From the sequence record NC_047979.1: a DNA stretch of 64,000 nucleotides; one strand, given 5' to 3'. Positions within the stretch are counted from its first letter, which is position 1. Each line of letters begins with the position of its first letter. Below, piece after piece: positions 557-51,194 of the stretch. The notes beneath the pieces were generated by a model. It ran no database searches and was not told where the DNA came from. It saw only the letters and a list, made by a program, of their open reading frames with translations. The position numbers and the translations under genes were made by a program. This stretch comes from Escherichia phage Gostya9.

Positions 557-585
557 ATTATACAGAATTTATAAGCATTTAGCAA
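557..585 (-). promoter_or_regulatory. sigma70-type early promoter (TTGCTA-N17-TATAAT) directed toward the tRNA-like element
   Basis: Minus-strand reading gives TTGCTA, a 17-bp spacer, TATAAT, then the conserved box ATATTCATAAATT. Confidence 0.5.
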
Positions 586-1036
586 ATGAATTTTTAGAAA
601 ACTCGCTAGCAATCAAGGCGGCTGTTTTACCATCATAACGCCCTGGAAATTCTGCCTTAATAGTTTTCATTAAGAGAGCTTTGGTAATGCCTGGGTTTAG
701 TTTAACTAATTCTGCAAAGTATTTACGAATTTCAGTATCAGATAACTGAGGAGGCAGATACTCCTGCAACCACTTATTTAGAATGTATTCATACTGAGCG
801 GACTGCAAGCTATAACTATCAAGATCTTGACCATGAAGTTTAGCTTTCATTTGGTTAATGCTTTTTAGTTGAGCTTTGAGATAAGACACAAATTGTTCAG
901 AAGTGATGAAATCTTTATCAATACGCTGAAGATCCCCGATTATGGTCTGGTAGCTTTTAGCGACTTCTTTATCAGAACCATTAAACTTAGAATCCTGCAA
1001 AGCTCTACGCAAAACAGCTAAAATATTCTCTTCCAT
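569..1036 (-). CDS. hypothetical protein (155 aa)
   Basis: ORF with ATG start at 1036 whose ATG overlaps the TAA of the upstream small ORF (TAATG). No recognisable motif. Confidence 0.6.
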   Translation of the reverse strand: MEENILAVLRRALQDSKFNGSDKEVAKSYQTIIGDLQRIDKDFITSEQFVSYLKAQLKSINQMKAKLHGQDLDSYSLQSAQYEYILNKWLQEYLPPQLSDTEIRKYFAELVKLNPGITKALLMKTIKAEFPGRYDGKTAALIASEFSKNSFAKCL

Positions 1037-1206
1037 TATTTCATCCCCAATGCTTGGTTGAAAGATTGTTCTGTCATAACTGCTGAGACTTTGGCGAAAT
1101 CAAACTTTTTAGGGTTCGTAGTGATCTCAGCAACGTTGGAAGTTTTAACAGTTTTCGTAGTACGAATACCGCGAGTGTTAACACCAATGACGACCAAGTT
1201 TTTCAT
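1036..1206 (-). CDS. small hypothetical protein (56 aa, below the 60-aa ORF-track threshold)
   Basis: ATG at 1206-1204 preceded by GAGAGGAAG RBS and the promoter at 1238-1266. Translates MKNLVVIGVNTRGIRTTKTVKTSNVAEITTNPKKFDFAKVSAVMTEQSFNQALGMK. Its stop overlaps the next ATG. Confidence 0.45.
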   Translation of the reverse strand: MKNLVVIGVNTRGIRTTKTVKTSNVAEITTNPKKFDFAKVSAVMTEQSFNQALGMK

Positions 1207-1237
1207 ATTTCGCTTCCTCTCATTAATTTATGAAAGT

Positions 1238-1266
1238 ATTATACAGAAGTTTAAGTATTTAAGCAA
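1238..1266 (-). promoter_or_regulatory. sigma70-type early promoter (TTGCTT-N17-TATAAT)
   Basis: Minus strand TTGCTT, 17-bp spacer, TATAAT, followed by the CATAAATT box and an RBS. Confidence 0.5.
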
Positions 1267-1281
1267 ATAAATTTTTAAGTT

Positions 1282-1731
1282 TTAAGTTTTAGTGACAGCA
1301 GGCTTATAAAATGTATGCCCCTTAATCTTAGTTGTTTTCTTAAACTTCTTTGTCCAGTACGGTTTATCTTTACCACTATGGAAGTATAAGGCTCCATGTG
1401 TAGGATCTTGTGGTAAATCAACGTAGTATATCACTCTAGCTAAATTCTTGGCGGTTTGCCAAGCCTCATCGGTTTTATCAACTTTTGGTCTCTTAGATAC
1501 CCAAGAGAACTGGTTAGACTGATATACTACTTTACAGTAGGAATCTGGGAATTTACCGGAGTTTACACGGTTTTTAGTAACATGTGCAATCGCCGTCATT
1601 CCCTTTATGCCCTCACCACGACTTTCGAAATAGATATTTTTAGCAATGCAATCTATTTCTTTTGCATCGTGCGATGCCTGACTACTAAAGCTGAAGGTAA
1701 GGGCAGCTACTAAAAGCAAAGCTGCCTTCAT
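1282..1731 (-). CDS. secreted cell-wall hydrolase, SleB-like (Hydrolase_2 family) with N-terminal signal peptide
   Basis: MKAALLLVAALTFSFSSQAS signal-like N-terminus, then NIYFESRGE...AIAHVTKNR..YCKVVYQ..QFSW motifs typical of SleB/CwlJ-type hydrolases. ATG at 1731 has a GGAG RBS; the track start at 1749 is 6 codons upstream. Confidence 0.6.
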   Translation of the reverse strand: MKAALLLVAALTFSFSSQASHDAKEIDCIAKNIYFESRGEGIKGMTAIAHVTKNRVNSGKFPDSYCKVVYQSNQFSWVSKRPKVDKTDEAWQTAKNLARVIYYVDLPQDPTHGALYFHSGKDKPYWTKKFKKTTKIKGHTFYKPAVTKT

Positions 1732-1736
1732 TCTTT

Positions 1737-2054
1737 TTACTCCTGCCAATCGTATTCAATACGATTGGGGTTTTCTTTGTATCCCAAGTCAAGCAAATCA
1801 TTACGCATAGTTTGCTTAGCTACGGGATTCGAGGTTACTAGTACCACTTTCTTTGGTCTCTGCCCAAATTCTAAGAGTAAACGAAGAATTTGATAACCTT
1901 CCATACCATCTACAGCCAAATCGTTGTCGAAATAAACAAAATGGCCAGTGGTATCAGTCTTATTCAGAAACTCAACAGCGGCTTCTGGGGTTCGAATGAT
2001 AATGTCCATTCCGTGAAGATTACGCACATCATCAATCAAAATATGAAAAGTCAT
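1737..2054 (-). CDS. stand-alone receiver (REC)-like domain protein, putative
   Basis: 105 aa with REC-like landmarks: ILIDDV (acidic pair), VYFDNDL (acceptor-Asp position), VVLVTSNP (Thr), then Lys. Motif-level only. RBS GAGG; promoter at 2084-2112. Confidence 0.4.
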   Translation of the reverse strand: MTFHILIDDVRNLHGMDIIIRTPEAAVEFLNKTDTTGHFVYFDNDLAVDGMEGYQILRLLLEFGQRPKKVVLVTSNPVAKQTMRNDLLDLGYKENPNRIEYDWQE

Positions 2055-2083
2055 AATAGCCTCGTTTCACCAATTTAAAATAT

Positions 2084-2112
2084 ATTATACAGAAAACTTA
2101 ATAAATTAGCAA
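2084..2112 (-). promoter_or_regulatory. sigma70-type early promoter (TTGCTA-N17-TATAAT)
   Basis: Minus strand TTGCTA, 17-bp spacer, TATAAT, about 30 nt upstream of the ATG at 2054. Confidence 0.5.
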
Positions 2113-2495
2113 ATACATTTTTAAATTGTGAAACTAGTAAACCGATAAACAGCCTAGGGGCGCCACAGGCCATATCTTATGAGCCATGTACCTTTGATCT
2201 AGGGTTTGAATCATCAACGAATACTTTGCATCTTTTAGCTTTAGAAGTTTAGAAGTTTGAGTTCTTTAAACTTTTCAGCTTTCATACTTAAATGTTGATC
2301 TTTGAAGTTGTGTCGGTAATATCAACGACGCTTTGTTTTTACGTGTCAGATTAAATGTCTGATGTAATAAACATAATCTCCAATAGATTATACTTTATAG
2401 TATGGTCAGCGGTCTTATTTAACCTCGTATTTCAACCGCTGCTGCGAGGTAAGATGCTTGGGCTTTCGTCTACCGATTTACTAGCTTTTAAATTA

Positions 2496-3134
2496 TTACT
2501 CTACTTCAATGAAAGTAGAGGCATTGGACTCAGACAGAACAAAGTCAACATTAGTTGCAAAGTCCTGGTATTCTTCGTCGTGCTGCTTGATCAGCTTTTC
2601 CAGCTCCAGCGGATCAATCAAGAATGGGGTATTCTTGAGTTCCAACAGGTTGAGCTGCATTTTAACTTCATCTTCGGAAGTTTTCTTATCGCGGGTAGCC
2701 ATGCTATCCTGCAAACGCTCATATTTAGCATCAAACTGTGCTTTCTGCGTATTAAACTTAACCGTAGCGGCATGGAACTGCTTACGCATATTAGCCAGCA
2801 ACTGAGCTTTAAGTTCCATAGAACGTTTAGCTTCAATTGCTTCTGCAACAGTCATTTTACGAGAACCAATCTCAACGATTGTTTCCGCATTGCTCTTAAT
2901 CAATGCTGCTTTGATACGATCACGTTGGGACAGCATATCTAGTAGGGATTGGAAATCTGTCTTAATACGATTAGACAGATCTTCTACTTCGATTGCGGCA
3001 CCAACTACAACCTGGTTTTTATCCTTACCTTCACCAACAGCGATCAGAAGCTGTTGTTCAGTAGCTTTACGGATTTTAGCTTCCAGAGATTTGATGGTTG
3101 CCAGAGCACGAGTTTTAGAGATACGAGTGGTCAC
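2496..3134 (-). CDS. hypothetical protein (212 aa), probable GTG start
   Basis: Long ORF with AAGGAAG RBS 7 nt upstream of GTG at 3134 and no in-frame ATG nearby. Charged, coiled-coil-like composition. Confidence 0.5.
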   Translation of the reverse strand: MTTRISKTRALATIKSLEAKIRKATEQQLLIAVGEGKDKNQVVVGAAIEVEDLSNRIKTDFQSLLDMLSQRDRIKAALIKSNAETIVEIGSRKMTVAEAIEAKRSMELKAQLLANMRKQFHAATVKFNTQKAQFDAKYERLQDSMATRDKKTSEDEVKMQLNLLELKNTPFLIDPLELEKLIKQHDEEYQDFATNVDFVLSESNASTFIEVE

Positions 3135-3186
3135 TGTTTCTTCCTTACATGAAGTTTAAGGTTTGAATTTGTTTAAAGTTGGTCTA

Positions 3187-3369
3187 TTACAGACCCATTG
3201 CCAGTAAGGTACGCAGAACAGTATCTTTACTATTATCAATTTTAGGATTAGCACGATTTAGCAGATCAAAGATTTTCTGGACACCTGATTGACGTTCAGC
3301 CATACGACGGATACCCAGATTACGAGTAGCTTTCTTACCATTTTTACGAACATTTTTAGATACTGGCAT
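3187..3369 (-). CDS. small basic hypothetical protein (60 aa)
   Basis: ATG-initiated ORF immediately downstream of the promoter at 3411-3439; Lys/Arg-rich. Confidence 0.45.
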   Translation of the reverse strand: MPVSKNVRKNGKKATRNLGIRRMAERQSGVQKIFDLLNRANPKIDNSKDTVLRTLLAMGL

Positions 3370-3410
3370 ATTTGTTTTCCTTTTATTGTTTTCTCAAATT
3401 TATGAAATAT

Positions 3411-3439
3411 ATTATACAGAATTTTGGAGCCGGAAGCAA
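3411..3439 (-). promoter_or_regulatory. sigma70-type early promoter (TTGCTT-N17-TATAAT)
   Basis: Minus strand TTGCTT, 17-bp spacer, TATAAT, CATAAATTT box. Confidence 0.5.
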
Positions 3440-3440
3440 A

Positions 3441-4142
3441 TCAAATTTTCATTTTTTCGATCATAGCTGCAACACAATAGCTCTCAACTAAGGCATCGAA
3501 TGCTGGGTCGTGCTTAACCGGATATATCCCGTAACGAATGGTGTCCATCTTCTCCATTTTAGCTATTGCCCAGCTAATACCTTCGGTCTCTAGAGCCTTA
3601 TAACTGTATCCAGCTTGCATCCAGAGATTACGAAGGGATCGAACATTACCCAAATTCCAGAATTTCCACGGAACTATTTCTTCATTGGTTCCAGCATGGA
3701 AAGTGTTTGCAGAGTAGATAGTCATATCAAACTCTGGGCCATTGCCATAATACAAAGCATTTTCGCCTAGAGCCAATTCCATAATGTTTTTAGCCATAGA
3801 ATAAGCTGCATAGTTAGAGCCGAGCTTATTAGTACAGTGATGTTTACCATCTTGAAAAGCAATCAGCTTTGGATTACGCTCGTTCATAGCTTCCATAATG
3901 TGGAAAGCAGACGGACTATTTTTAGCTTGATCCATCCAGAATGCTAGAGTAGATGCTGTAACTTTGGCACCAGAATTAAGCTGATCCTGCACATCCAAAG
4001 TAACAAACACTAGATCAGGGTCTTTATCAATTCCGTGCATAGCCACAAAAGCGAAAGAAGGCATTACGATATGAGTAGTACCACAATCTCCCGGAGTTCC
4101 TAGAGATTCAATATCTAACATACCAAATGGTTTTACTTTCAT
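3441..4142 (-). CDS. putative 3'-5' exonuclease (DEDD / DnaQ-like fold)
   Basis: N-terminal FGMLDIESLG resembles DEDD exonuclease motif I (D-x-E); 233 aa. Motif-level inference only. Confidence 0.45.
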   Translation of the reverse strand: MKVKPFGMLDIESLGTPGDCGTTHIVMPSFAFVAMHGIDKDPDLVFVTLDVQDQLNSGAKVTASTLAFWMDQAKNSPSAFHIMEAMNERNPKLIAFQDGKHHCTNKLGSNYAAYSMAKNIMELALGENALYYGNGPEFDMTIYSANTFHAGTNEEIVPWKFWNLGNVRSLRNLWMQAGYSYKALETEGISWAIAKMEKMDTIRYGIYPVKHDPAFDALVESYCVAAMIEKMKI

Positions 4143-4170
4143 AACTTATCCTTTATTGTGTAGAAAACTA

Positions 4171-4407
4171 TTAAAGAGCTGTCTCTTTAATAGACTCCCA
4201 CTTCTTGGGGTCTTTAAAACCAGGAAGCATATCTTCACTAACATCCCAGTTTTCTTCCGTAGAAAAGTCTGGCCATTCATTCCAACTATCTTCCAGCTCT
4301 TCATACCAGGTATCCATTACCTCATGACTAGAAAGTCGTGTATAATCTCTAGCGGATTTATGAGTGCTAGCACGGTTAAAATCATTCTTTGCTACAAAAT
4401 TACGCAT
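4171..4407 (-). CDS. small acidic Trp-rich hypothetical protein (78 aa)
   Basis: ATG at 4407 with GGAG RBS; strongly acidic (EELEDSWNEWPDFSTEENWDVSED). Confidence 0.5.
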   Translation of the reverse strand: MRNFVAKNDFNRASTHKSARDYTRLSSHEVMDTWYEELEDSWNEWPDFSTEENWDVSEDMLPGFKDPKKWESIKETAL

Positions 4408-4415
4408 AGTTTCTC

Positions 4416-4442
4416 CAAAAATATGAGGGGCTTTCGCCCCTC
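4416..4442 (-). terminator. rho-independent terminator
   Basis: Hairpin GAGGGGC-TTTC-GCCCCTC followed on the minus strand by a U-rich tract. Confidence 0.5.
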
Positions 4443-4449
4443 TTATCTA

Positions 4450-4965
4450 TTACTTCGCTTTACGTTTACGAGCTGGTTTAGCGGATTTACGAGCAGAATC
4501 ACCCGTAAATTTAATACCCACACCATAGCATAGAGCACGAACGTTATCTTTGCTATATTCTACGCCGAAGATATTTGGCTTAACAGAACCAAACTGGCCA
4601 CGAGTATCACGCAGTACATCTGCCGTTGGTTTACGCTTCTGGTTAACTGCTTTCTCATAGTCTTTCATGGCCATGCCATTACGAGGGAACAACTCAGCTC
4701 CAGCATTGAAACTCAGTGTTACTGGAACAGATTTGTGACCGTAACCCTGTACATAGGTTACGAGGCGGACTACAGAACGAGTAGCATTCTTAGCCTTCGG
4801 CTTTTGACGAATCGGAGCCGGACGATTCAGTGCCTGTGCAGCTTGAGCATCAGTAGGATGCTTGCGCAGGTGGCGTTCCAGACGAGCTTTGCGGTTAGCC
4901 TCAGTCTGTGGGAAAGTTTTAACTGCCGGAGCTGCTTGAGTTTTTGCGTTTTTCTGCTTAGCCAT
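4450..4965 (-). CDS. basic hypothetical protein (171 aa)
   Basis: ATG start 39 nt downstream of the promoter at 5004-5032; Lys/Arg-rich N- and C-termini. Confidence 0.55.
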   Translation of the reverse strand: MAKQKNAKTQAAPAVKTFPQTEANRKARLERHLRKHPTDAQAAQALNRPAPIRQKPKAKNATRSVVRLVTYVQGYGHKSVPVTLSFNAGAELFPRNGMAMKDYEKAVNQKRKPTADVLRDTRGQFGSVKPNIFGVEYSKDNVRALCYGVGIKFTGDSARKSAKPARKRKAK

Positions 4966-5003
4966 TATTTGTTTTCCTTTTTGTTTATCAATTTATGAAG
5001 TAT

Positions 5004-5032
5004 ATTATACGAGAATTTGAAGCGTTTAGCAA
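5004..5032 (-). promoter_or_regulatory. sigma70-type early promoter (TTGCTA-N17-TATAAT)
   Basis: Minus strand TTGCTA, 17-bp spacer, TATAAT, CATAAATTGATA box. Confidence 0.5.
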
Positions 5033-5048
5033 ATGAATTTTTTAAAAA

Positions 5049-5327
5049 TTATCTGCCAACCATCTTAGCTTGTTCGGCATCTGAGACATATTGATACGCT
5101 CCTTTATTATACGCTGGAGCAGTACACATTTTCTTACGCTCAATCTCTTCTTGAGCTTTTCTTTCGCGTTCAGCTAATTCTTCATCCAGATAAACTAAAC
5201 GTTGTTCTGGAGGAGGTGGAAGACGTGTTTCTGGCTCCCCAATATTAGCCTTTCTTATTTGACGAGGTGATTGTACACGTTTTCTCAACGGTTTAAATCC
5301 TAATGAATTTGAGTTATAAATTCGCAT
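5049..5327 (-). CDS. hypothetical protein (92 aa)
   Basis: ATG with strong GAGGAGG RBS; promoter at 5355-5383. Confidence 0.55.
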   Translation of the reverse strand: MRIYNSNSLGFKPLRKRVQSPRQIRKANIGEPETRLPPPPEQRLVYLDEELAERERKAQEEIERKKMCTAPAYNKGAYQYVSDAEQAKMVGR

Positions 5328-5354
5328 AAAGCCCTCCTCACTTTCAATACGAAT

Positions 5355-5383
5355 ATTATACTAAATTAGAGGGCTTTAAGCAA
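5355..5383 (-). promoter_or_regulatory. sigma70-type early promoter (TTGCTT-N17-TATAAT)
   Basis: Minus strand TTGCTT, 17-bp spacer, TATAAT. Confidence 0.5.
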
Positions 5384-5403
5384 CTGAATTTTTAAATTAT
5401 TTA

Positions 5404-5880
5404 TTACATCTCCGCAAGTTCTTGCTCAGTAATAACTGTGTTACACAGTGCATCTACAGCTTCATTACCACTAATACCAGAATGTCCTTTAACCTTAATA
5501 AAGGTAGGATTAGTATTATGAAAGTTGATATACTGCTGTGTTAATTTAAATGCTTCCTGCCACAGCTCTAGGTTAAGAGGAACTTCACCATCTGCTTTCT
5601 TCCAGCCTTTCCTTTGCCAAGAGAACATCCAGCTTTCCATGCCATTTTTGCAATAAGCAGAGTCAGTATAGATAACACTTGGTCTATTATCCTTTTTAAC
5701 GGACCAACGTAGAGCTTCTACAATAGCCGTGAGTTCCATCTCATTATTTGTAGTTTTAGGATTATAACCAGATTTAGAGCCTAAACGATCGTCATTATCA
5801 TCATAGACAATAAAACCCCAAGCACCCGGGCCAGGGTTGGACTTACAAGCACCATCTGTGTAAATGTGGAAAACCGACAT
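5404..5880 (-). CDS. rnh: ribonuclease H
   Basis: N-terminal IYTDGACKSNPGPGAWG is the hallmark RNase HI motif; 158 aa. Confidence 0.85.
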   Translation of the reverse strand: MSVFHIYTDGACKSNPGPGAWGFIVYDDNDDRLGSKSGYNPKTTNNEMELTAIVEALRWSVKKDNRPSVIYTDSAYCKNGMESWMFSWQRKGWKKADGEVPLNLELWQEAFKLTQQYINFHNTNPTFIKVKGHSGISGNEAVDALCNTVITEQELAEM

Positions 5881-5882
5881 TA

Positions 5883-6392
5883 TTATTCCCCTTCGTAGGT
5901 ATCTTCAGGCCAATGTGATGGTTCACTATCTGCTGGTTTATACATTCTAGGTAGTGCTAATAGTGAGAGAAAAGCTGGCTCACTAAAGTAGTGAGTATAT
6001 TCTTTAAACTCTGAGAACCACTCAGTTACCTCTTGAATATCCTCTTCACAAGGTGAGAGAGTTTCTATGGAACAGGTTGCACCCCTCTTAGGTTTGGTTT
6101 TATAATAGTCATCTAGTACTCTTTGAACCTTCTGTGCTGTTTCCTCAGCAGTTAAAGATTCATCACACTCTATACTATCTATCTCCTCTGCTAGATAGTC
6201 CGGCCATTCCTCTCCCTGACCTACTCCATCATAACGAATGACTGGCTGGCAGTCCTCATCACTATTTAGTGCATGTAGTTCCATATAATGGAACGTTTGG
6301 GCTATTACATCTAGCAGCAACTTTAGTTGCTCTTTTGAGGCTGTCCCTTCTTTGTACTTAATATAGGCATTAGCTACTTTTGGATTAATCAT
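5883..6392 (-). CDS. acidic hypothetical protein (169 aa)
   Basis: ATG-initiated ORF downstream of the promoter at 6427-6455; very Asp/Glu-rich. Confidence 0.55.
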   Translation of the reverse strand: MINPKVANAYIKYKEGTASKEQLKLLLDVIAQTFHYMELHALNSDEDCQPVIRYDGVGQGEEWPDYLAEEIDSIECDESLTAEETAQKVQRVLDDYYKTKPKRGATCSIETLSPCEEDIQEVTEWFSEFKEYTHYFSEPAFLSLLALPRMYKPADSEPSHWPEDTYEGE

Positions 6393-6426
6393 ATTCGTAT
6401 TTATCCTTTGTTTATTAATTGAGTAT

Positions 6427-6455
6427 ATTATATTTAAATTTCACTAAATAAGCAA
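6427..6455 (-). promoter_or_regulatory. sigma70-type early promoter (TTGCTT-N17-TATAAT)
   Basis: Minus strand TTGCTT, 17-bp spacer, TATAAT. Confidence 0.45.
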
Positions 6456-6493
6456 ATGAAATTTAAGTATAATAGCCCCGAAGGCTATTTAAA

Positions 6494-7267
6494 TTATACA
6501 AACTCATACGCCGGGAACTTAGGTGAACGAACTCTATTACCTATAGTCGCTGTGGAACACCCCAATGCTCTAGCTGCTGCACTCATACTAACGTATTCCA
6601 CACCATCCACACGTACTGCCTTAAAGTGAGTAGGAATGGGTGTCTTTCCCTCTCTAATACTTTCTTGGTACTGCTTAGAAGCCTGAGACATCTTGCTCAG
6701 AGCCTCTTCAGTGTGCTTCTTCCCATAAAAGGAGTTATTCTCACCTGTTCGATCCCTACAACTATTACAGTACTCCCCATTAGTGTTATTAAGGGCTAGT
6801 AGGGAACCACAATCAATACATGTTTTTGAGCGAGTAGATACTCCTCCCTTCCAGTTATAGTTTAGCTCGCCTGGTCTACTCCACCGGGCTTTTCTTTCTT
6901 CTTTAGATAAGGACGCTATATGCTTTCTAACACTCTCACTAATTCTCTTAATAATCTCCTCTCTTCGAGGATTATTTGTGAGATTATCCCCGCCACCGTA
7001 GCTACCTATGTTGAACTCTGCTCCCAGCTCCTTAGCCCACTCTTCTTCTAGTAAGAACTGCTGATCTACTTCTTCAGTAGTATCTAAGATGTCAAATACA
7101 AAGTCTTGCTTTCCGGTTTTATCATAAGCTCTCTGTAGAAAAGCGTTATGGTGGTTCCCCTTACTTAGTGAGTAAAAATGTTTACGCTTTCTAGCCTCAA
7201 TATCCTTAGTCGATCCAACGTACTGTCTTCCCGTAGATAGCTGAGTTATACTATAGATGTAAATCAT
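6494..7267 (-). CDS. GIY-YIG homing endonuclease
   Basis: N-terminal IYIYSI...GRQYVGST...R..KH matches the GIY-YIG catalytic module; C-terminal region has repeated NUMOD-like Cys-containing DNA-binding segments. Free-standing gene upstream of thyA. Confidence 0.75.
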   Translation of the reverse strand: MIYIYSITQLSTGRQYVGSTKDIEARKRKHFYSLSKGNHHNAFLQRAYDKTGKQDFVFDILDTTEEVDQQFLLEEEWAKELGAEFNIGSYGGGDNLTNNPRREEIIKRISESVRKHIASLSKEERKARWSRPGELNYNWKGGVSTRSKTCIDCGSLLALNNTNGEYCNSCRDRTGENNSFYGKKHTEEALSKMSQASKQYQESIREGKTPIPTHFKAVRVDGVEYVSMSAAARALGCSTATIGNRVRSPKFPAYEFV

Positions 7268-8097
7268 GCTGCCATTTTACCAGTTAATTTAGGGTGATGT
7301 TTATATTCTTCCAGGATAAAGTCTTTGGGTGTTAGGGCCAGAAGATCTTCTAAGGAAGAGAAGTTTGGCAGTACTAGTCTAGGTAGCTCCAGGGGTTCTC
7401 TAGTTACTTGCTCCTTTACTTGGTCTAGGTGATTTAAGTAAATATGAGTGTCCACAAGATGTCCTGTTACTGACCCAGGTTTCTTTCCTGTGAGTGCAGC
7501 TAAAATATGACAGAGTAAGGCATAGCTAGCTATATTAAATGGTAATCCTAGAAATACATCACAACTAACCTGGTACCATGTTAAGTGTAGGTGTCCATCT
7601 CTTTGGTTTACAGAGAACATTACGTGGCAGGGAGAAAGCACAACGTCGTCAAGTTTTGCAGGATTCCATGCTGAGACTACCATTTTTCTATTATGAAAAA
7701 TATCGGATTTGATATCCTCGATTAGTTTCATAATCTGGTCTGTACCGAAGAAGTCTCTCCAGTTTTTCCCATAAATATATCCCAGATAACCTTCAGTGTA
7801 GCCTTTTTCGACCCCTTGTTTTTCATAATTAGGATGCCAGATAGTACGCTTCTCTCCTCTAGTCCCATGAGTATACTCTTCTAGATCATACAAGTTAGTA
7901 GATCCTGAGAGGAACCACAACAACTCCCCTACCACGGATTTCCACGCTAGTGCTTTTGTTGTTACTGCTGGAAACCCTTTAGTAAGGTCAAAAGAGACAA
8001 TATTATTTAGGGAAGAGATAGTACCTACACCTGTCCGGTCAGACACGTGGGTTCCCTCAGATAAAACTTTATTAATTAAATCAATATACTGTTTCAT
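7264..8097 (-). CDS. thyA: thymidylate synthase
   Basis: PCHVMF...YQVSCDVFLGLPFNIASYALL matches the ThyA active-site region (catalytic Cys in PCH). Confidence 0.9.
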   Translation of the reverse strand: MKQYIDLINKVLSEGTHVSDRTGVGTISSLNNIVSFDLTKGFPAVTTKALAWKSVVGELLWFLSGSTNLYDLEEYTHGTRGEKRTIWHPNYEKQGVEKGYTEGYLGYIYGKNWRDFFGTDQIMKLIEDIKSDIFHNRKMVVSAWNPAKLDDVVLSPCHVMFSVNQRDGHLHLTWYQVSCDVFLGLPFNIASYALLCHILAALTGKKPGSVTGHLVDTHIYLNHLDQVKEQVTREPLELPRLVLPNFSSLEDLLALTPKDFILEEYKHHPKLTGKMAA

Positions 8098-8630
8098 TAA
8101 TAAGTAACCAATTCCTGTACAAATCGCAGGCTGTTATCACTGTTTGCGCCAACTGCATAGACTAATCTAGTGGATTCATAGTTATAATCCAGTATCATAC
8201 TATCTAGGTATGTATCTGCCTCTAGCTTCTGTTCGCTAAAGATTGTAGATACAAAAGCACTTTCTATATGCCCATGTTGGTACATTTCTAGAAGAAGATT
8301 AGCTCCGCCTAGAACTACTGTTTGCTGATCTTTTAGAAAAGTAGGTAATGTATCACCTATCATTGATATGGGAGTGTAAATATCATGTGTAATATCGTCT
8401 GGCAGTGGACGATCAGCACGAATAAATAGGTCAGAAGTTCCAATCATACGTTCCCTAACGGCGTATGGAAGAGCTAAATAAGTACCTGCCCCAATAATAA
8501 TATTATCAGGATTTAGTACATCTAATTGTGAATAAAAAGCATCTAGTTCTTCTTTAAAAGAACCCCAGGGAAGCTTACCTCGGAGGCCGAACTCCCCATT
8601 CGGCCCAACTGCATACATTGCACTAATCAT
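8097..8630 (-). CDS. frd: dihydrofolate reductase
   Basis: MISAMYAVGPNGEFGLRGKLPW N-terminus typical of DHFR; 177 aa; start overlaps the thyA stop. Confidence 0.8.
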   Translation of the reverse strand: MISAMYAVGPNGEFGLRGKLPWGSFKEELDAFYSQLDVLNPDNIIIGAGTYLALPYAVRERMIGTSDLFIRADRPLPDDITHDIYTPISMIGDTLPTFLKDQQTVVLGGANLLLEMYQHGHIESAFVSTIFSEQKLEADTYLDSMILDYNYESTRLVYAVGANSDNSLRFVQELVTY

Positions 8631-9772
8631 AGGAAATCTCCAAATTCATTGCCCAGATCTTTTAGAGTATCAGTAGAAGTCTCAGTTACCTGACCTACAC
8701 GATAGGCTGCACCAATCTGGATTTCTTGTGGAGCAGGCTGTAGAGAAGTAGTATCCAACCAGTTCATGATCCACGGAATAGGGTTTTTAGTGATTACTGG
8801 TAAGTGACTAGGCCATTCTACGCCAATGTGCATAAACGCGTTACGTCCCACAAAGTACAGGTACTCTTCTAGCAGTTCTGCATTCAGACCAATCAGACTG
8901 CGACCTTTGAAAATGAAATGACCCCATTCAATTTCAGTTTTCAGAGTTTTCAGGAGCTGTGCTGGTGCTTTAGCCACTGCCTCATCTACCAGATCTTTGT
9001 CAAACTGCTGGAACATAATCTGGATGATTGTTTTAGACATCTGGGTGTGCAGAGCTTCATCTTTAGCGATCAATTGCAGATTTTTAGCGATACCTTGCAG
9101 AATATCGTTCTCTGCTAACGCAAAGGTGCACGCAAAGGATGCGTAGAATTGCATTGCTTCCAGACCGTAGATTGCAAAATAAGCATCTAACAGTTTAGCC
9201 TGAGTTTCACGCTTAACTTCAGGGAACTCAGTTTCTGGGTACGTATTGTCACCACGATGATCACGTACTGCGATGAAATACTGACCTAACTGGTACAGTT
9301 CATCGAACAGCTCAACAGAATCTGCGATACGTGCAAATGCTTCTTGGTTTTTAGTTACAGAATCAATAAATTCTGCCGGATCAGTCAGCACATTACGAAT
9401 AATGTTACTATAAGCACGGCTATGCAGGTCTTCAAAGTAGCTCCACTGCTTGAGCATACCTTCTAGTTCTGGACGGCTTACCAGCGGCATAATAGCTGCT
9501 TCAGGCGCTCGACTGATAAAGGAATCAGTTTGAGTCTGCCATGCTAAGTTCAGGAGTGTGATTTCCTGAATTTCACGTGGGAGATTGGGCCATTGTTTCT
9601 TATCGGCTTCTAAACTGATTTCTGTCTCAGTCCAAAATTGCGAGCGTTGCAGAAGTGCCAGACGCTCTAATTCTGGGTGTGCTACGCGTACATAATCTGC
9701 GATACCTAGAGAATCGCCCAGGAAAAGATCAGCGTTAGTATGATCCCAATTCAGGTTTAGTAAAGTAGTCAT
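8627..9772 (-). CDS. nrdB: ribonucleotide reductase (class Ia) small subunit
   Basis: 381 aa ferritin-like R2 protein with conserved iron-ligand and tyrosyl-radical region; promoter at 9804-9832. Confidence 0.85.
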   Translation of the reverse strand: MTTLLNLNWDHTNADLFLGDSLGIADYVRVAHPELERLALLQRSQFWTETEISLEADKKQWPNLPREIQEITLLNLAWQTQTDSFISRAPEAAIMPLVSRPELEGMLKQWSYFEDLHSRAYSNIIRNVLTDPAEFIDSVTKNQEAFARIADSVELFDELYQLGQYFIAVRDHRGDNTYPETEFPEVKRETQAKLLDAYFAIYGLEAMQFYASFACTFALAENDILQGIAKNLQLIAKDEALHTQMSKTIIQIMFQQFDKDLVDEAVAKAPAQLLKTLKTEIEWGHFIFKGRSLIGLNAELLEEYLYFVGRNAFMHIGVEWPSHLPVITKNPIPWIMNWLDTTSLQPAPQEIQIGAAYRVGQVTETSTDTLKDLGNEFGDFL

Positions 9773-9803
9773 TGATTTTCCTCTTTCTCACTATTTCAGG
9801 AAT

Positions 9804-9832
9804 ATTATAGCAAATCAGATAGCGATTAGCAA
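9804..9832 (-). promoter_or_regulatory. sigma70-type early promoter (TTGCTA-N17-TATAAT)
   Basis: Minus strand TTGCTA, 17-bp spacer, TATAAT, 32 nt upstream of the nrdB ATG. Confidence 0.5.
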
Positions 9833-9848
9833 GTAAAATTTCAAAGAA

Positions 9849-13305: not shown

Positions 13306-13381
13306 AAATAACACTCCTATAGTGTACTTCGCTTCTAACAGAGGATCAACAAAAAGATCTTGTTTATCAACTTACAAATAT

Positions 13382-13410
13382 ATTATACCAGTATATATAG
13401 TAAAAAGCAA
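13382..13410 (-). promoter_or_regulatory. sigma70-type early promoter for phoH (TTGCTT-N17-TATAAT)
   Basis: Minus strand TTGCTT, 17-bp spacer, TATAAT. Confidence 0.45.
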
Positions 13411-13547
13411 CTACAATTTTAAATAAGCCTATGATATTGCATTTAAATAAAAAATTTGCTTGCTTATAAAGGTAGAAATATGATACTAGATAATCATTTA
13501 TTTATACGCGAAATATTACAGTATTAGATGGCGAAAGAAAAATTTAA

Positions 13548-13576
13548 TTGACATAGTGGGTAATATTTAGTATAAT
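13548..13576 (+). promoter_or_regulatory. consensus sigma70 promoter for nrdD (TTGACA-N17-TATAAT)
   Basis: Exact TTGACA at 13548-13553, 17-bp spacer, TATAAT at 13571-13576; divergent from the phoH promoter. Confidence 0.6.
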
Positions 13577-13709
13577 AAGTGTAAAAATTCTGAGGAGAAA
13601 ACTAACCCACAGTAACTACTGTAAAGAGTAGAACTGTCAGTACAGAAGTTTTAACGGGGTATAGAGGTCCTCGGTACTGTAGCTACAAAATTTATAGAGG
13701 AAATAATTA

Positions 13710-15542: not shown

Positions 15543-15576
15543 CAGCCAGGTTGCTAGTCGACCTGGCTTTTATTTT
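15543..15576 (+). terminator. rho-independent terminator after nrdD
   Basis: Hairpin AGCCAGGT-TGCTAGTCG-ACCTGGCT followed by TTTTATTTT. Confidence 0.6.
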
Positions 15577-15578
15577 AT

Positions 15579-15607
15579 TTGCTTTCAGCTAAAAATATAT
15601 GTATAAT
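15579..15607 (+). promoter_or_regulatory. sigma70-type early promoter (TTGCTT-N17-TATAAT)
   Basis: TTGCTT, 17-bp spacer, TATAAT, then ATAAATTTGAGGAGG box/RBS before the ATG at 15637. Confidence 0.55.
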
Positions 15608-15636
15608 AGATTTATAAATTTGAGGAGGTAGGAATT

Positions 15637-22338: not shown

Positions 22339-22347
22339 AAAATTTAT

Positions 22348-35863: not shown

Positions 35864-35934
35864 ATATACATAAATTTGAGAGAGAAAGTTTCGGATTGAT
35901 AAGAAAGTCCGAAGCAGAAAAATAAAAATTTTAG

Positions 35935-35964: not shown

Positions 35965-36071
35965 ATATACATAAATTCGAGGAGAAAACAAAAATTAAAT
36001 TCTTCGATTATGAAAGGCTATATTTACTAGCTAGAGGAAATTCCGACCTAATTATTAAGCTATTCAAAAGA

Positions 36072-36356
36072 ATGCTTACAGAGCCTGATGCTCACCAATT
36101 ATTGGTCGGTTCCTCATTCATTTTGAATGAATCAACAATAGTTGATAATCCAAATAAATTGTCTAATAGACAACTGGCAGAATATCTAGGAATTTTAAGT
36201 CTACGAAATTATGCCGAATACAAGTTTACAAACGATCCTAGTTTGGACATACAATATGTTCCAGTATGGATACCACGTTTAGTAATCGACACTAACCCAC
36301 TAATCGCAATTAACAAATCGAAATTAATCTTTAAAGAGGAAATAAAATATGGCTAA
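36072..36356 (+). CDS. hypothetical protein (94 aa), uncertain
   Basis: ATG-initiated ORF without a clear RBS; its stop overlaps the start of the next gene. Confidence 0.3.
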   Translation: MLTEPDAHQLLVGSSFILNESTIVDNPNKLSNRQLAEYLGILSLRNYAEYKFTNDPSLDIQYVPVWIPRLVIDTNPLIAINKSKLIFKEEIKYG

Positions 36357-41775: not shown

Positions 41776-41985
41776 ATGGTAGGTATTGATACTAATGTGT
41801 CAACTTATCAGACTAAAACTACTGAACCAGAAACATTTATACTAAAAACAGACAAAGAAGGTAATGTTACTTTCTGGGATCCTGAAGGTTTTGTAGAGCT
41901 TTGTACTAATACAGATAATGAGCAGTTAAAATTACTACTAACTATTTATAATCTTGGTATTATAGAAGGTTGTAGAAGAGAATAA
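41776..41985 (+). CDS. small hypothetical protein (69 aa), uncertain start
   Basis: In-frame ATG at 41776 (a GTG at 41722 is also possible); ends just before the bidirectional terminator. Confidence 0.35.
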   Translation: MVGIDTNVSTYQTKTTEPETFILKTDKEGNVTFWDPEGFVELCTNTDNEQLKLLLTIYNLGIIEGCRRE

Positions 41986-45167: not shown

Positions 45168-45589
45168 TATTGAGTCACCCCATCGCTAATATAAATTTTG
45201 CCTTCCATAATACGGAAAGAACTAGCAGCATTACCAACAGCTGTTCTAGTAATAATTACATCATAGTACCCAGCTAATCTCTGTCTGGGGTTATATCTAT
45301 CTCTTTCTTTGGATGCTTTGGAAGCAATAGTAGCTACAGCACTAACAGGTAGACTTATAGAGGCTACCCCCTGTGCAGCATCAACAATAGATGTAGTAAA
45401 AGATGCTAAAGTTTCAGCCCCATCTTCAAAGCTACTTTTAATACTTCCTCTAAGAGAAAAGCCAGTAAGGTCTACTGGTGTAGATGTAGGGGGATAAACA
45501 CTATCATCTACATCCATAAATTGCATAAGTAAACCATAAGGTACGTTCTCATCTACTACTAAATCAATAACTCTATTTTCTGTACTCAT
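45167..45589 (-). CDS. tail collar-like protein (p132-position, 140 aa)
   Basis: Size and position immediately upstream of the tail fibre match the T5 collar protein as I recall it; no diagnostic motif. Confidence 0.45.
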
Positions 45590-45593: not shown

Positions 45594-47678
45594 TTACCTT
45601 ATATGGATATACCCGTTTTGCAGGTCTATCTTCATTTTGTAAGATCCCTCTGGGTTAGAGGATAGTGCTGCTGCACGATCATATATAATATTTACACCTA
45701 TTTGTGATAAGAAAGCATTATTAGCAACAATTTTACTAGCAGTTACCGTACCATTAACTATCATATCACCATGTAAAACCATTGCAGGGCTAGCCCATGC
45801 TGAACCATTCCACTGCCTAGTAAACGCTGTTCCAGGTGCATCACTTTTATACTCAGTCAATACATCATACTTAACAGGGCCACTACCGAAGTTAGATGTA
45901 AAAAACGAATTGGCTTGAGAATCATTCCATGCCGTTAAATTAGTAATAGCAACGGAGTACATACCGGGACCACGTTGTCCATTAGCACCTGGACTACCAT
46001 TGGCCCCTGGCCTACCATCAACCCCTTCTGTACCACTCCATTGAACTACATCTGACCAACTGGTTCCAGATACTAACTGATTAGTAACAGGGTCTAAAGT
46101 ACCAGTAGAACAATAAATATTCTGAGTATTAGATGTTCTATTCGGTGGAGTTTTAGACCAACCTGAAGGTGGGTATGCAGGACTTGTTGGTTTAGCAGGC
46201 AATGAAGTACCTAGAATATAGATAAATACTGTCTGCTTACCTTGTATACCTGTTGCTATATCGATGTCACCGTTAGGTGTACCAATTACAACCCCACTAG
46301 AGATTCTTAACGTATCCCCATCATAACGAATGTACTGTGTAGCATTACCAATGTCCAGTTTTGGTTTAGCAGTAGCGTTATCCATGCCCATCCAAATGCC
46401 GGATTTTGTGTCTCCCCAAGTTTTGCCTTGAGTATAGATTGCTGGGTTGTCTTGACCAGTTAAGTTAGTCATTACAAAGTTCGCAGCATTAATGGTTTTA
46501 GTTATTACACTTCCATCAACGTTAACTATCTTTTTAATAGGGTCAAAAGATATTGGTGCTTTTCCTTCTGCATCTAGAAGACCTATATTAATAGCACCGG
46601 TGGCAGCATCTATTAAGAAGGTTTGTTTCCAGGTCGATCCATCTTTAATTTTACCCTTAATGTGCGCGTAATTTACTTCGATACCAGTTTCATTAACAAA
46701 ACTATTATCTAGTGGAGTACTCTCATTTAATATAAATGTCTGTACTGCGGAATCAGTAACATCTTGGGCATCTGGTCCCCAGGCAATAGATGACACTTTA
46801 AATTTATGTTCTACTTTCCACGGGAATGAGATAATTGTTGCAGCTTGAGCAGCACCAACGTTAATCTTTTGAGCTTTAGTCCAACCACTACGTGCGAACT
46901 CTGCTGAGTCTATATAAGAAACAACAAACTCTCTAACGTTAGCACCAGCACCACGTTCCCAGTCCCATTCTACTCTAACATCATATCGTTCCTTACCATC
47001 TGCAATTCGTGCAGCTTTAAACACGATATTAACAGGAGCTGTAGGAGGCACAAAGTTATATTTAACTTCAAAGACGGTAGGATACTCAAAATACCCTGAG
47101 GAATCAACTGTTACCCCGTCAGGTAGGGTTACTTGTCCTGAGATCCTTACTTTATAGAATCCAATAGGTACTCCACCAAACATAATAGTTGGCATCAAAG
47201 CACCCACGTAATATTTAATCCAAGGACTATCTGCACTAGAATTATCTTTTAACTCTATAGTACAATAATCGGCCTCCCCGGTAGTATCTATATAAACTAT
47301 TGGAGAACCAACACCAACGTCCACCGGTTCTGACTCGCATCGAGCACCCGTGATTCTAGGTGCTGATTTCATTCTAAAAGTTTGTTTGTCAGATAAATTA
47401 ATACCTATCTGAGCATTAAGTAGTTCAGAGTCTATTATAGAATCATAAAATGCACCCTGAACTTCATAAGTTGTCGTAGGTTTTAAGTTATTAATAGTTA
47501 CAGAGAATGTATCAACACCAGTAAAATCCCTACGAGTGATGTTGTTACCTTCTTTAAGCCAGAAGGATCTACCAATAACGTCGTAATCCGAGTAAATGGA
47601 GTGCTGGATATACGCTAAGGTATATCCAGTCAGTACGCTATTTAAGACCATCTTGGCTGGTGCATTATTTGAAATCAT
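45594..47678 (-). CDS. baseplate/tail tip protein (pb4-like) with Ig/FN3-like beta-rich repeats
   Basis: About 694 aa, beta-rich Gly/Thr/Ser composition. ATG at 47678 overlaps the upstream stop (TAATG); the track ORF starts 5 codons upstream at a GTG. Confidence 0.5.
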
Positions 47679-50527
47679 TAAATGGATGCCCACTCCACAG
47701 ACTGTTCTCCATCATCTCCTTCAGCTCTAATACGAAAATACAATTTTCTATTTATACCTAGAGCACCGCTGTTCTGGAGAGCAAAGTCTGCCTTATTATA
47801 TATTAATAAATAGTCATAAGTATACTGATTTTCAATACGTACACTTCTTAACATCCTATTTTGCGAATCGTGTATTTCAAGTGTATAAAATATACTATCT
47901 ATTATATCTTCTTCAGGTATTCTATCCCAAGCTAGTTTCACATCTGGGCCAACAAACTCAGTTACATCTCCAGAAGCAGTATTAGTTACCCTAAAATTAG
48001 ATACTACACTAAGGTTTTTAGCAGAATTAAGTTCTATAGACAGAGTCACCGGGGAACTTCTTCTACCATTAATATCTACTGCCCTTATCTCAAATATAGC
48101 CAGACCTGCTGGTTCCCCAATTATCTCTTGGATCATACGTTCGTTAGGATTATTCTCTAACTGTTGTACTATGTAAGGTTCAGCATGACCGGAATGCACG
48201 ATAGAGTAATAAACTACGTTATTAGTTAAGCTTGGAAGCCAGGATAATTCACCATTTTTTCCTATAGAACCAACTAAACCACCAGGTGTAGGAGTATACT
48301 TAAAATCTCTAGGTGGAAGGACATTGTTACTAATATCTGGTATATCATTACCACTATTATCTACTTGATCAGAGTTGATGAATACATCTTCTCCATACTC
48401 CTGTAGAGTAACATTTATCTTACCTTCTCTAGAGTTTTCCACTTCGTCTACTAGGAAGTACTTCCTATCCCACCCATAACGGCCATATGTGAATGCAATA
48501 GCATCGTTAGGTTCAATACCAATGAATTGATACGGCAATGAGAAAGAAAGTGTTCTTGAGTATCTGGATTTCTTAAGTTCTCTATCAGCAAAACTTCTTG
48601 CAGTATAGTAATTAGTAATATTAGCAAAAGATAGTTGTAATTTTTTATCTAGGTTCTTGTCCTGTTCCTTATACTGGGAGTTATAGAATGTAATGGAATT
48701 AGTTTTCCAGCTAAGGGCTGGATCTACGATAGATGCTTGAACTGAGTTGAATTTATTTCTACCAGTAGTATCTGATAGCTCCAAATCACCGTAAGTATCT
48801 AGAAAATTAATCTCTAACGGAGTATTAGAGTATTTTTCTACAGTAACCCTGTACTGGCCAGATAAGTTGTTAATAGCCCCACCAAAGGATTCTAATATAC
48901 CTTGAACGTTTTTAAATACTGATTCAGAAGTGTCTAGTATGGTGTTTAGTTGAACTATTTGACGATGCTCGGAGTAAGAATCTTCCCAACCAACGTAGCG
49001 CCAGTAGGGTTGCCAGCCAACTTGGTAAGATTCATCAATTATATCTAGAATCTTAGCTTCGGCGATTACCTGCTGCAGCGGGAACTGATCAATGGTGATA
49101 TTAGCCCCGTAACGTTCGGAAGTCAAATAATCCATTAACTGCCAGATACCGTTTAAGCTAGTTTTGTTGGCCACTACAGAACCGTCAGAATGGTAGACTT
49201 TTACTTTTTTACCTTGAATTTCAGCACTAACTTCAGGAATATCAGTTCTGTTTTCATTAATAGTAAAACGCACTACGGCATAAGCGGTATCTAGTAGCTT
49301 ATATCTGGCGTCCCAGTACTCCGGTCCATTGCCATTCATATTCTGAAGGTAGAACCCACGTTCTCTAGCTATATCTACTAGTACTTCAGAAGCCGTTTGA
49401 TTAGACTTTCCGTGGTAAGTCCAAATCCTTATATCACCATTTCCATCATTATACCTATACTCTTGACCATGAACGGATGGACTACTAGAGGAAATTCCAG
49501 ATGCTATCCTCTGCATGGTATCTCCTACTATTTTTTTAGTACCGAAGCAGGTTCTAGCGGAGCTATCATTATCGTCTACACAAATCATAGGGTTATCACC
49601 AAAGGAGAAATCAAGAAAACCATCAATCTCTCCCTCAGCAAAGGCGTATACGACATAAACTATGTTGGGATTGTGTAGTTCTGTATCAGCAAAAATAGGT
49701 ATCCCCGGTATTTTCTGTACACCATAAACTACTGGTATATATTTAGCAGCAAGGTTAAAATCTATATCTACTTCCTTAGTAACAGTTTCATAGTATTTTT
49801 TAAGGCTGTAGCTTCTAGATAAACCAAATAATTTTTTCTTTGATTTTAGCTTGTATCTTTCTTCCTGTACTTGGTACTTTGCCAGTATAGATATACTTTT
49901 ATTAGCATGAAAGAACCCATAGTCTTCTTGGTACTCAGGTCTTTTAGCACCGTTAGATGGTACTAGCTGTCCAGCTACAACTTCAAGCCCCCTATGAGAA
50001 GCATCATCAGTATATCTGCCATTAACCCTATCAAAGTCATAGAATTGGTTAGAACAATTCCAGGTAATTGTAGAAGTTCCTACTCCAGAGGTACTAATGT
50101 TATCTTTAATGCCTCCTCCAGTAATCCTTCCCCTAAAGTACAGTAAAGGACCATTTGTATCTGGGTCTACTGGCAGAATAGAACCATCTTCAGTAATAAT
50201 TGCTTGATGAATTGATACGGTTCTATCTAAGAAGGACACGCCATTTTGTACTAGTTTTAGCACTTCATCCTGTGCTGTGCCAGTAATGGTAAAAGATAGA
50301 CTTCCAATAGATAAATCTCTGTTTTGTTTGTGTGGGCTAATAGACTTAACTTTACCCGCTTGGTATAGGATGCCATTATATATTACATCTCTAAAATAAT
50401 CAGTTAAATAAATAAAAGCAGTACTAGTACCAGTAGAGCCAGGTAACTCTAGAGAAATTAGACTAGCAGTTTTTATTCTGCTATTATTTTTTAAGTAGTT
50501 TCTAGCACTATCTAGTATTTTTTTCAT
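47678..50527 (-). CDS. baseplate hub protein (pb3-like)
   Basis: 949 aa, which matches the T5 pb3 length as I recall it; sits between Dit and pb4-like genes; start overlaps the Dit stop. Confidence 0.6.
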   Translation of the reverse strand: MKKILDSARNYLKNNSRIKTASLISLELPGSTGTSTAFIYLTDYFRDVIYNGILYQAGKVKSISPHKQNRDLSIGSLSFTITGTAQDEVLKLVQNGVSFLDRTVSIHQAIITEDGSILPVDPDTNGPLLYFRGRITGGGIKDNISTSGVGTSTITWNCSNQFYDFDRVNGRYTDDASHRGLEVVAGQLVPSNGAKRPEYQEDYGFFHANKSISILAKYQVQEERYKLKSKKKLFGLSRSYSLKKYYETVTKEVDIDFNLAAKYIPVVYGVQKIPGIPIFADTELHNPNIVYVVYAFAEGEIDGFLDFSFGDNPMICVDDNDSSARTCFGTKKIVGDTMQRIASGISSSSPSVHGQEYRYNDGNGDIRIWTYHGKSNQTASEVLVDIARERGFYLQNMNGNGPEYWDARYKLLDTAYAVVRFTINENRTDIPEVSAEIQGKKVKVYHSDGSVVANKTSLNGIWQLMDYLTSERYGANITIDQFPLQQVIAEAKILDIIDESYQVGWQPYWRYVGWEDSYSEHRQIVQLNTILDTSESVFKNVQGILESFGGAINNLSGQYRVTVEKYSNTPLEINFLDTYGDLELSDTTGRNKFNSVQASIVDPALSWKTNSITFYNSQYKEQDKNLDKKLQLSFANITNYYTARSFADRELKKSRYSRTLSFSLPYQFIGIEPNDAIAFTYGRYGWDRKYFLVDEVENSREGKINVTLQEYGEDVFINSDQVDNSGNDIPDISNNVLPPRDFKYTPTPGGLVGSIGKNGELSWLPSLTNNVVYYSIVHSGHAEPYIVQQLENNPNERMIQEIIGEPAGLAIFEIRAVDINGRRSSPVTLSIELNSAKNLSVVSNFRVTNTASGDVTEFVGPDVKLAWDRIPEEDIIDSIFYTLEIHDSQNRMLRSVRIENQYTYDYLLIYNKADFALQNSGALGINRKLYFRIRAEGDDGEQSVEWASI

Positions 50528-51138
50528 AAACTTTCCCGTAAATTTAATGAGATGCCGGAATATGTTCCGTTATTATTTAATGTAGATCCGAAAGCATCAC
50601 CATTCATGAGTTTTGTTCTAAACAGTATCCCATTAAATACTGGTTTTTCAGCTCCAGTGGTGGTTATAAATAGGTCAGGGTATACGTTAATAGACCATGA
50701 ATTGCCAGATCTATTAAATGATGTTATTTTATAAACTTTTGGGTGATTGGATAATTTAAATAAATCACCTGGTTTAGGGATACCAGTAAGAACACCTCCT
50801 GTATTCATAGTAATATTGGAACCTCTTTGTCCTGCTGGTATATTTACTAAGTTAGTATTGCCCCTAACCCTAAAAGCTTCATACTGAGGTAATATAACAT
50901 CTATATAGCCACCGGTCCTTTTGTACTCTAGAATAAAAGCATCTAGAACACTATATTCATCTGGAAATAATTCTGGATAAGAAATATTTATACCCCAGTA
51001 TTGAGCAGATACCTTAACTTCGTTAACTTTACCATTTGGTAACTCATCACGAATTACTGGGTCATTATCAATCAGGTTAACACTTTCGAATCCTAAGCCT
51101 GAAAGTTCTGGATTCGTGTATGGGTCTGGTAATCTCAT
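50524..51138 (-). CDS. distal tail protein (Dit, pb9-like)
   Basis: 204 aa immediately downstream of the tape-measure gene, the conserved Dit position in siphovirus-like tail modules; AGAGGAG RBS. Confidence 0.6.
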   Translation of the reverse strand: MRLPDPYTNPELSGLGFESVNLIDNDPVIRDELPNGKVNEVKVSAQYWGINISYPELFPDEYSVLDAFILEYKRTGGYIDVILPQYEAFRVRGNTNLVNIPAGQRGSNITMNTGGVLTGIPKPGDLFKLSNHPKVYKITSFNRSGNSWSINVYPDLFITTTGAEKPVFNGILFRTKLMNGDAFGSTLNNNGTYSGISLNLRESL

Positions 51139-51165
51139 AGTTAATTTCTCCTCTTTAATAACAAT

Positions 51166-51194
51166 ATTATAATAGTATTAGAAAATTTTATCAA
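51166..51194 (-). promoter_or_regulatory. sigma70-type promoter (TTGATA-N17-TATAAT) within the late tail operon
   Basis: Minus strand TTGATA, 17-bp spacer, TATAAT, 28 nt upstream of the Dit ATG. Confidence 0.45.

Follow-up and report, generated by a model that had tools for sequence, protein, structure and literature searches.

The 64,000-nucleotide stretch of Escherichia phage Gostya9 (sequence record NC_047979.1), here called the window, carries 19 copies of one promoter module, in which TTGCTw, a spacer of mostly 17 bp and TATAAT are followed by a conserved AT-rich box, (C/T)ATAAATT. The module is the long-known strong early promoter of T5-type phages; it is already known, and its recognition here is correct annotation rather than discovery. 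Judged by the published numbering of the T5 promoter P-N25, the "downstream box" is the transcription start site together with the first seven transcribed bases. The copies are very probably early-class sigma-70 promoters used by the unmodified host RNA polymerase, with the box as a start region that aids promoter escape, and the similar-looking site in the tail operon at 51166-51194(-) is very probably the late promoter P-G25. The module is specific for the early class and conserved throughout the family, which adds modestly to the known picture.

The strict motif TTGCTW-N17-TATAAT occurred 13 times in the whole window, against 0.03 occurrences expected, and none of 100 shuffles reached 13. 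A relaxed scan with alignment on the -10 hexamer gave a single family of 19 sites on both strands and thereby confirmed the repeated module described in an earlier note on this DNA. All 17 coordinates listed there carry a -35/-10 pair on the strand given, while two copies, 30277(+) and 35835(+), had been missed. The strict form claimed for the module holds at 13 sites, and four of those listed (13548, 18706, 22348 and 35935) are variants.

From 5' to 3', the members show an A-tract, TTGCTw, 17-18 bp, TATAAT, an AT-rich discriminator, (C/T)ATAAATT and a purine run, with the 19-site consensus tTtAAAAtTTtAT-TTGCTt-A.tgCT.aAAAaTTt.G-TATAAT-ATaTt-tATAAATT-.gagAaAgA. TTGCTw was exact in 13 of the 19 sites, and 16 start with TTGC. 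Exceptions include TTGACA (13548), TTGGCA (35835), TTGCAT (18706 and 22348) and TTGCTG (30277). The spacer measured 17 bp in 17 sites and 18 bp in two. TATAAT, itself a selection criterion, was followed by A in all 19. Upstream, A was found in 16-18 of 19 sites at columns -38 to -35 counted from the last T of TATAAT, i.e. about -45 to -42 from the start site. AAAA lies 5' of the -35 hexamer in 13 of 18 sites, and the A-tract, AAAAATT, is UP-element-like and ends ∼3 nt upstream of -35. The initial transcribed sequence is first AT-rich and then purine-rich (AUAAAUUnGAGAG), and in 11 of the 19 copies it continues directly into the Shine-Dalgarno sequence. An assignment as extended -10 promoter (TGnTATAAT) was rejected, as the conserved cTG directly abuts the hexamer (TGTATAAT) and is one position too close; the promoter scan returned no TG at -15/-14 at any site scanned.

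AT-rich background had been named beforehand as the explanation that could refute the box, and the box withstood this test. Against the promoter regions' own composition (73% A+T), the best eight columns held 5.17 bits, compared to 1.35 ± 0.25 bits in 2000 dinucleotide-preserving shuffles of the same downstream DNA, none of which reached the observed value. The 13 columns after the -10 hexamer contained 0.3-1.4 bits each (null mean 0.12, 99.9th percentile 0.63). Exact ATAAATT was found 5-7 nt past TATAAT in 10 of 19 sites, while the shuffles had a mean of 0.53 and a maximum of 4. The remaining nine sites have variants such as TAAGTT, TGAATT and TAGTTT. The window has 88 TATAAT hexamers; of these, 24 have TTG at -35 distance, and 10 of the 24 are followed by the exact box, compared to none of the 64 others (Fisher 4e-7). 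As a bare word, ATAAATT was only mildly enriched window-wide (38 vs 24 expected from Markov models); this k-mer test is insensitive because the signal lies in the position relative to -10 and not in the word count.

Fifteen of the 19 sites map with 89-100% identity to promoters annotated in the T5 record AY692264 (T5 st0), namely P-D/E33, P-H207, P-N25, P-N26, P-K28a and ten features labelled "putative promoter". The five named ones were described as T5 early promoters by Gentz & Bujard (1985), as cited in Klimuk et al. (2020). For the T5 promoters of this type, recognition by the host sigma-70 polymerase and early kinetics in infection are known from the literature. For P-N25, positions -12 to +2 were given as TATAATAGATTCAT (Klimuk et al. 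2020). With this numbering, +1 is the A of CATAAATT and the box would thus span -1 to +7, so that the earlier proposal of a shared initiation element was borne out in the form of start site plus initial transcribed sequence. The start-site assignment rests on the published N25 numbering; a literature search for a genome-wide start-site mapping of T5 found nothing usable.

The position of the box also speaks for a role at initiation. Its distance is fixed at 5-7 nt from the -10 hexamer and varies from 27 to >400 nt from the first start codon. Moreover, exact boxes without a following open reading frame (ORF) occur at 557(-), in front of a tRNA-like gene (408-481), at 35835(+), with a hairpin and then a second promoter downstream, and at T5 P13b, where the annotated rna2H comes directly next with no ORF between. 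The fixed spacing together with the boxes lacking an ORF favours a role in initiation or escape over a purely translational one. Both roles could coexist in the 11 copies with a very short leader. According to a later summary of work by Kammerer (1986) and the Hsu laboratory, replacement of +3 to +20 in N25 (N25 antiDSR) lowered productive full-length RNA ∼10-fold, and promoter escape was fastest with the native AT-rich initial sequence.

Three further genera of the family, represented by Klebsiella phage Roth50, Pectobacterium phage DU_PP_V and Vibrio phage Thalassa, also have the module with its box in their early regions. When up to one mismatch was allowed, the box was present at 8 of 18 promoters in Roth50, 9 of 15 in DU_PP_V and 14 of 22 in Thalassa, compared to about one in shuffles. 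Between syntenic promoters of different genera, identity was 66% in the box, 58% in the discriminator, 46% in the spacer and 37-43% in the far flanks; the identity of the hexamers is uninformative here because they were selection criteria. In Thalassa, the promoters of the tRNA region at 39122, 40312, 40722, 45835 and 46223(+) share a near-identical 25-nt start region (AGTTACATAAAGTTGAGAAACGGAGAT), suggestive of a promoter cassette that has recently been duplicated or has undergone gene conversion.

Specificity for the early class was apparent in T5 itself. The 19-site profile gave 24 matches in 100 kb of T5, all of them at 16-68 kb, and 23 of these are annotated promoters; eight lie in T5 regions outside the coverage of the window. 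The profile matched no annotated promoter of the pre-early terminal repeat (1-9749; e.g. P-D/E20 and P-H22) and no late promoter (P-G25, P-J5 and two putative ones).

The site in the tail operon (51153-51210, minus strand) had been described in the earlier note as a copy of the same module in front of the gene for the distal tail protein (Dit). This holds insofar as 51166-51194(-) is a generic strong sigma-70 promoter with an AT-rich start. It has an A-tract, TTGATA-N17-TATAAT and a strong Shine-Dalgarno sequence. However, it lacks TTGCTw and the exact box, reading TTATTAAAG instead (ATTGTT followed by ATTAAAGAGGAG), and the nhmmer profile of the 19 early modules had no match there at E ≤ 10. 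Over 74 nt it is 98.6% identical to annotated T5 P-G25, located in the same gap between pb2 and pb9, the Dit gene. By its sequence, the site is therefore read as the known late promoter P-G25, of a class distinct from the early module in its TTGATA, the other phase of its A-tract, the absence of an exact box and the terminator upstream. The idea that tail genes are expressed early from an early-type promoter at this site was rejected, the site being late P-G25 and missed by the early profile.

P-G25 reached a position-weight total of 4.7 bits, while the early copies had a leave-one-out mean of 41 (range 2.6-58). Scoring by segments placed the shortfall in the A-tract phase, the -35 hexamer TTGATA and the spacer; the discriminator ATTGT and the start region TATTAAAG scored within the early range. 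On this small sample, the upstream parts contribute no less to the difference between early and late promoters than the discriminator, in which Klimuk et al. (2020) placed it. An intrinsic-terminator-like hairpin (51219-51243, minus strand; 11 pairs and a T run) directly follows the stop codon of the pb2 tape-measure gene. P-G25 lies directly past it and would thus start a new late unit rather than sit inside one. Phages of Salmonella and Klebsiella and three Vibrio phages likewise have a terminator followed by a TTGAnn promoter at this junction. P-G25 and P-J5 gave late transcripts in infected cells, and the P-G25 transcript of T5 appeared 30 min after infection in primer extension (Klimuk et al. 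2020). A site at 58351-58379(-), TTGACA-N17-TATACT, is read as the second of these late promoters, its two hexamers and spacer being those of T5 P-J5; it has no box and is located within an ORF that precedes the major tail protein gene.

The Dit leader (51139-51162, minus strand; ATTAAAGAGGAGAAATTAACTATG) equals the ribosome-binding sequence of common E. coli expression constructs. Its last 21 nt, AAAGAGGAGAAATTAACTATG, are present in 14 papers. The "RBSII" of the pDS/pQE vectors would stem from the T5 P-G25 ribosome-binding site; a literature search on this origin found nothing usable.

How the module may work can be outlined as follows. The -35 hexamer TTGCTw is deliberately non-consensus and is combined with a perfect -10 hexamer, the A after TATAAT and the discriminator ATaTT. 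The upstream parts would make the polymerase bind very fast and very stably. Most likely, the start region, conserved and AT-rich, would set initiation at a fixed A and allow quick clearance of the tightly bound promoter with little abortive cycling. P-G25 would restart transcription past the terminator that follows the tape-measure gene. The literature shows, for P-N25 only, where transcription starts and how the initial transcribed sequence acts; repetition, significance, class specificity and family-wide conservation were computed here. That the remaining 18 copies work by the N25 mechanism is our inference.

Several points weigh against this explanation. The exact box is present in only about half of the copies and is therefore preferred rather than required. 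Other sequences, CATAGTTT and GGTAAGTT, serve in place of the exact box at P-N26 and the polymerase promoter, and the latter promoter (Ppol, with GGTAAGTT) was active in vivo (Klimuk et al. 2020). Many copies are related to each other, as seen in paralog matches among the modules, so that the 19 sites are not fully independent samples. For 18 of the 19 copies, the start site is assigned by homology. In N25, +3 to +20 were exchanged as a block, and hence the share of +1 to +7 alone seems not to have been isolated. Finally, large-scale work on initial transcribed sequences gave no simple universal motif for fast escape.

Another explanation, unlikely but compatible with a start region that aids escape, is that the box and the AT-rich discriminator form a cis mark by which the early class is singled out in temporal control. 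This region would be read by a phage factor or by phage-modified polymerase, such as polymerase carrying gpT5.026, to shut off the early promoters at late onset. The strict class specificity of the early profile in T5 and in the window fits this idea, as does the conservation of the module across genera with different hosts. According to Klimuk et al. (2020), polymerase with gpT5.026 binds the N25 non-template strand at -5/+2 ∼8-fold less, a gene-026 mutant has more early and less late RNA, and the early discriminator ATATT was proposed as the discriminating element. However, the effects of gpT5.026 on transcription in vitro were at most 2-fold, and the mutant still switches between the classes (Klimuk et al. 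2020). P-G25, furthermore, differs from the early promoters mainly upstream (A-tract phase, TTGATA and spacer), while its discriminator and start region score like early ones. Sequence inspection of the box gave no operator-like dyad symmetry beyond AT-rich self-complementarity, and the comparison is limited to two late promoters. The more specific proposal that the discriminator and CATAAATT serve as such a mark from E. coli to Vibrio phages of the Demerecviridae, for selective early shut-off via gpT5.026-type proteins, is somewhat more doubtful still. If true, it would provide a concrete starting point for solving the early-to-late switch of T5.

AU-rich leaders enhance translation, and the box might act mainly on the RNA, as an AU-rich 5' leader for ribosome (S1) loading or for stability of the mRNA 5' end. 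The leader of ∼20-35 nt in 11 of 19 copies, with Shine-Dalgarno sequences of the GAGAGG or AGGAG type a few bases past the box, would suit such a role. Yet the spacing of the box is fixed to the -10 hexamer and free to the start codon, and exact boxes without an ORF stand at 557(-), at 35835(+) and, ahead of a stable RNA, at T5 P13b; this explanation is improbable. That the box is unselected, as AT-rich intergenic background or through recent copying of one promoter cassette, is largely refuted and very improbable: the promoter regions are indeed AT-rich, the bare word is only mildly enriched, some copies are clearly paralogous (90-97% over 30-54 nt) and several Thalassa copies are near-identical over >25 nt, but the conservation was reached by no dinucleotide shuffle, the box follows none of the non-promoter TATAAT hexamers, it is kept at syntenic promoters whose spacers and flanks have diverged to 37-46% identity, and the N25 ortholog differs from T5 only in the last two -35 bases and the spacer.

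The window can be assigned to a T5-like phage (Tequintavirus) from its similarity to known genomes: HildyBeyeler, DT571/2 and DT57C show 94-98% identity to a 13-kb piece of it, and its late half has ∼90% identity to other T5-like phages. The gene order is that of T5, with two divergent early arms (minus-strand genes to ∼13.3 kb and plus-strand genes at 13.7-42 kb) and then a minus-strand late block of tail and head genes. The early arms contain ∼51 ORFs and ∼19-21 promoters. This corresponds to roughly one promoter per transcription unit of two to three genes and does not agree with a module in front of nearly every early gene, as had been proposed.

On the minus strand, four early promoters have the exact CATAAATT. 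They are 557(-) (544-601; TTGCTA-N17-TATAAT, ATATT), 1238(-) (1225-1282; identical to T5 P-D/E33 at 72 of 72 positions), 3411(-) (3397-3455; T5 putative promoter 36186-36253), where the box lies 7 nt past -10, and 5004(-) (4990-5048; 100% identity to T5 P-H207). Box variants were read at 2084(-) (2071-2128; T5 putative promoter 34860-34927; TTTAAATT) and in front of phoH at 13382(-) (13369-13426; T5 putative promoter 45431-45497; TGTAAGTT). The box is degenerate at 5355(-) (5342-5399; T5 putative promoter 38131-38197; GTATTGAAAG), at 6427(-) (6414-6471; TCAATTAAT), which is without close T5 counterpart, and before nrdB at 9804(-) (9791-9848; T5 putative promoter 41858-41921).

The plus-strand series begins before nrdD with 13548(+) (13532-13589; TTGACA-N17-TATAAT), the weakest member of the family, again without close T5 counterpart. 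The box reads TATAAATT at 15579(+) (15563-15620; T5 putative promoter 47660-47727), at 24560(+) before ligA (24544-24601; T5 putative promoter 57237-57304) and at 25735(+) before ligB (25719-25776; 100% identity to T5 P-K28a). A promoter with TTGCAT and TATTGAATT lies upstream of D2 with a long leader at 18706(+) (18690-18747; T5 putative promoter 50951-51018). The P-N25 ortholog before D3, 22348(+) (22332-22389; TTGCAT), is 89% identical to its T5 counterpart, with all differences confined to the last two -35 bases and the spacer. The promoter at 23374(+) (23358-23415) has 100% identity to T5 P-N26 and the box variant CATAGTTT, and the one before the DNA polymerase gene, 30277(+) (30261-30319), reads TTGCTG-N18-TATAAT and GGTAAGTT. 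The exact CATAAATT is found at 35835(+) (35819-35876; TTGGCA-N17-TATAAT), whose sequence is conserved but unannotated in T5, and at 35935(+) (35919-35977; TTGCTA-N18-TATAAT).

These last two are full early modules in tandem, 100 bp apart (35835-35977, plus strand). Between them lies a stable 10-bp hairpin (-14.2 kcal/mol, z = -3.2) without an adjacent U run, and 35835(+) may yield a short RNA only or read through into 35935(+). The first gene downstream of 557(-) is the tRNA-like gene at 408-481(-), which was found by Rfam (tRNA, 39 bits) and ARAGORN. It lies ∼70 nt downstream of the promoter and was given the unusual anticodon ACT by ARAGORN. The 557(-) transcript would start with AUAAAUUAGAGAGUAAUUCUUCUCU, in which a small 5' hairpin could form. 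This tRNA was the only match in the Rfam scan, which showed no known leader or small RNA family at the modules.

The phoH-nrdD region is a divergent early control region with back-to-back promoters, 13382-13410(-) among them, and has at 13456-13484(+) an extra TTGCTT-N17-TATGAT without box and without T5 annotation. T5 P-K28b was recovered with 100% identity at 25642-25670(+) (TTGACA-N17-TATACT, no box), outside the early-module profile; it is located 93 bp upstream of P-K28a, before ligB. The DNA polymerase ORF (30368-34012, plus strand) encodes 1214 amino acids, compared to 855 in T5. Flanked by the exonuclease and polymerase domains, Pfam placed a LAGLIDADG endonuclease at residues 430-578 and, under the Pfam cutoff, a weak intein-splicing match at residues 323-672. 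Taken together, the larger ORF and these two matches suggest an intein that is absent from T5.

T5 early promoters, which rank among the strongest sigma-70 promoters known, underlie widely used expression vectors, and P-N25 serves as a standard model for promoter escape. The nearby biological question concerns the successive use of three temporal promoter classes by a single host polymerase; that the early module is class-specific and conserved throughout the family adds a small supporting observation to it.

Compared with the N25 experiments, the box corresponds to the first seven nucleotides of the N25 downstream sequence region (AUAAAUUUGAGAGAGGAG). Those experiments concerned one promoter and a block exchange of +3 to +20, whereas the family-wide conservation of +1 to +7 is a genome comparison only. 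For the T5-like phage AKFV33, Niu et al. (2012, PMC3326045) reported 32 promoters per genome with the consensus TTGCTw, TATAATA, 17-18 bp, AAAAATT at -43 and TAAATT at +1, which is the present module nearly word for word. Their paper took the +1 region as general AT-richness and contains no test of class specificity or comparison beyond the genus. With this consensus, including TAAATT at +1, in print and the promoters annotated in the T5 record, the module is not new. In comparison with T5, the window has an N25 ortholog with TTGCAT and a different spacer, two sites (6427 and 13548) lacking a close counterpart and one (35835) that is unannotated there. Otherwise, the T5 early promoters share the A-tract, TTGCTw, the 17-bp spacer, TATAAT, the AT-rich discriminator, the start region CATAAATT, the purine-rich initial transcribed sequence and the syntenic positions, and nothing of substance is different.

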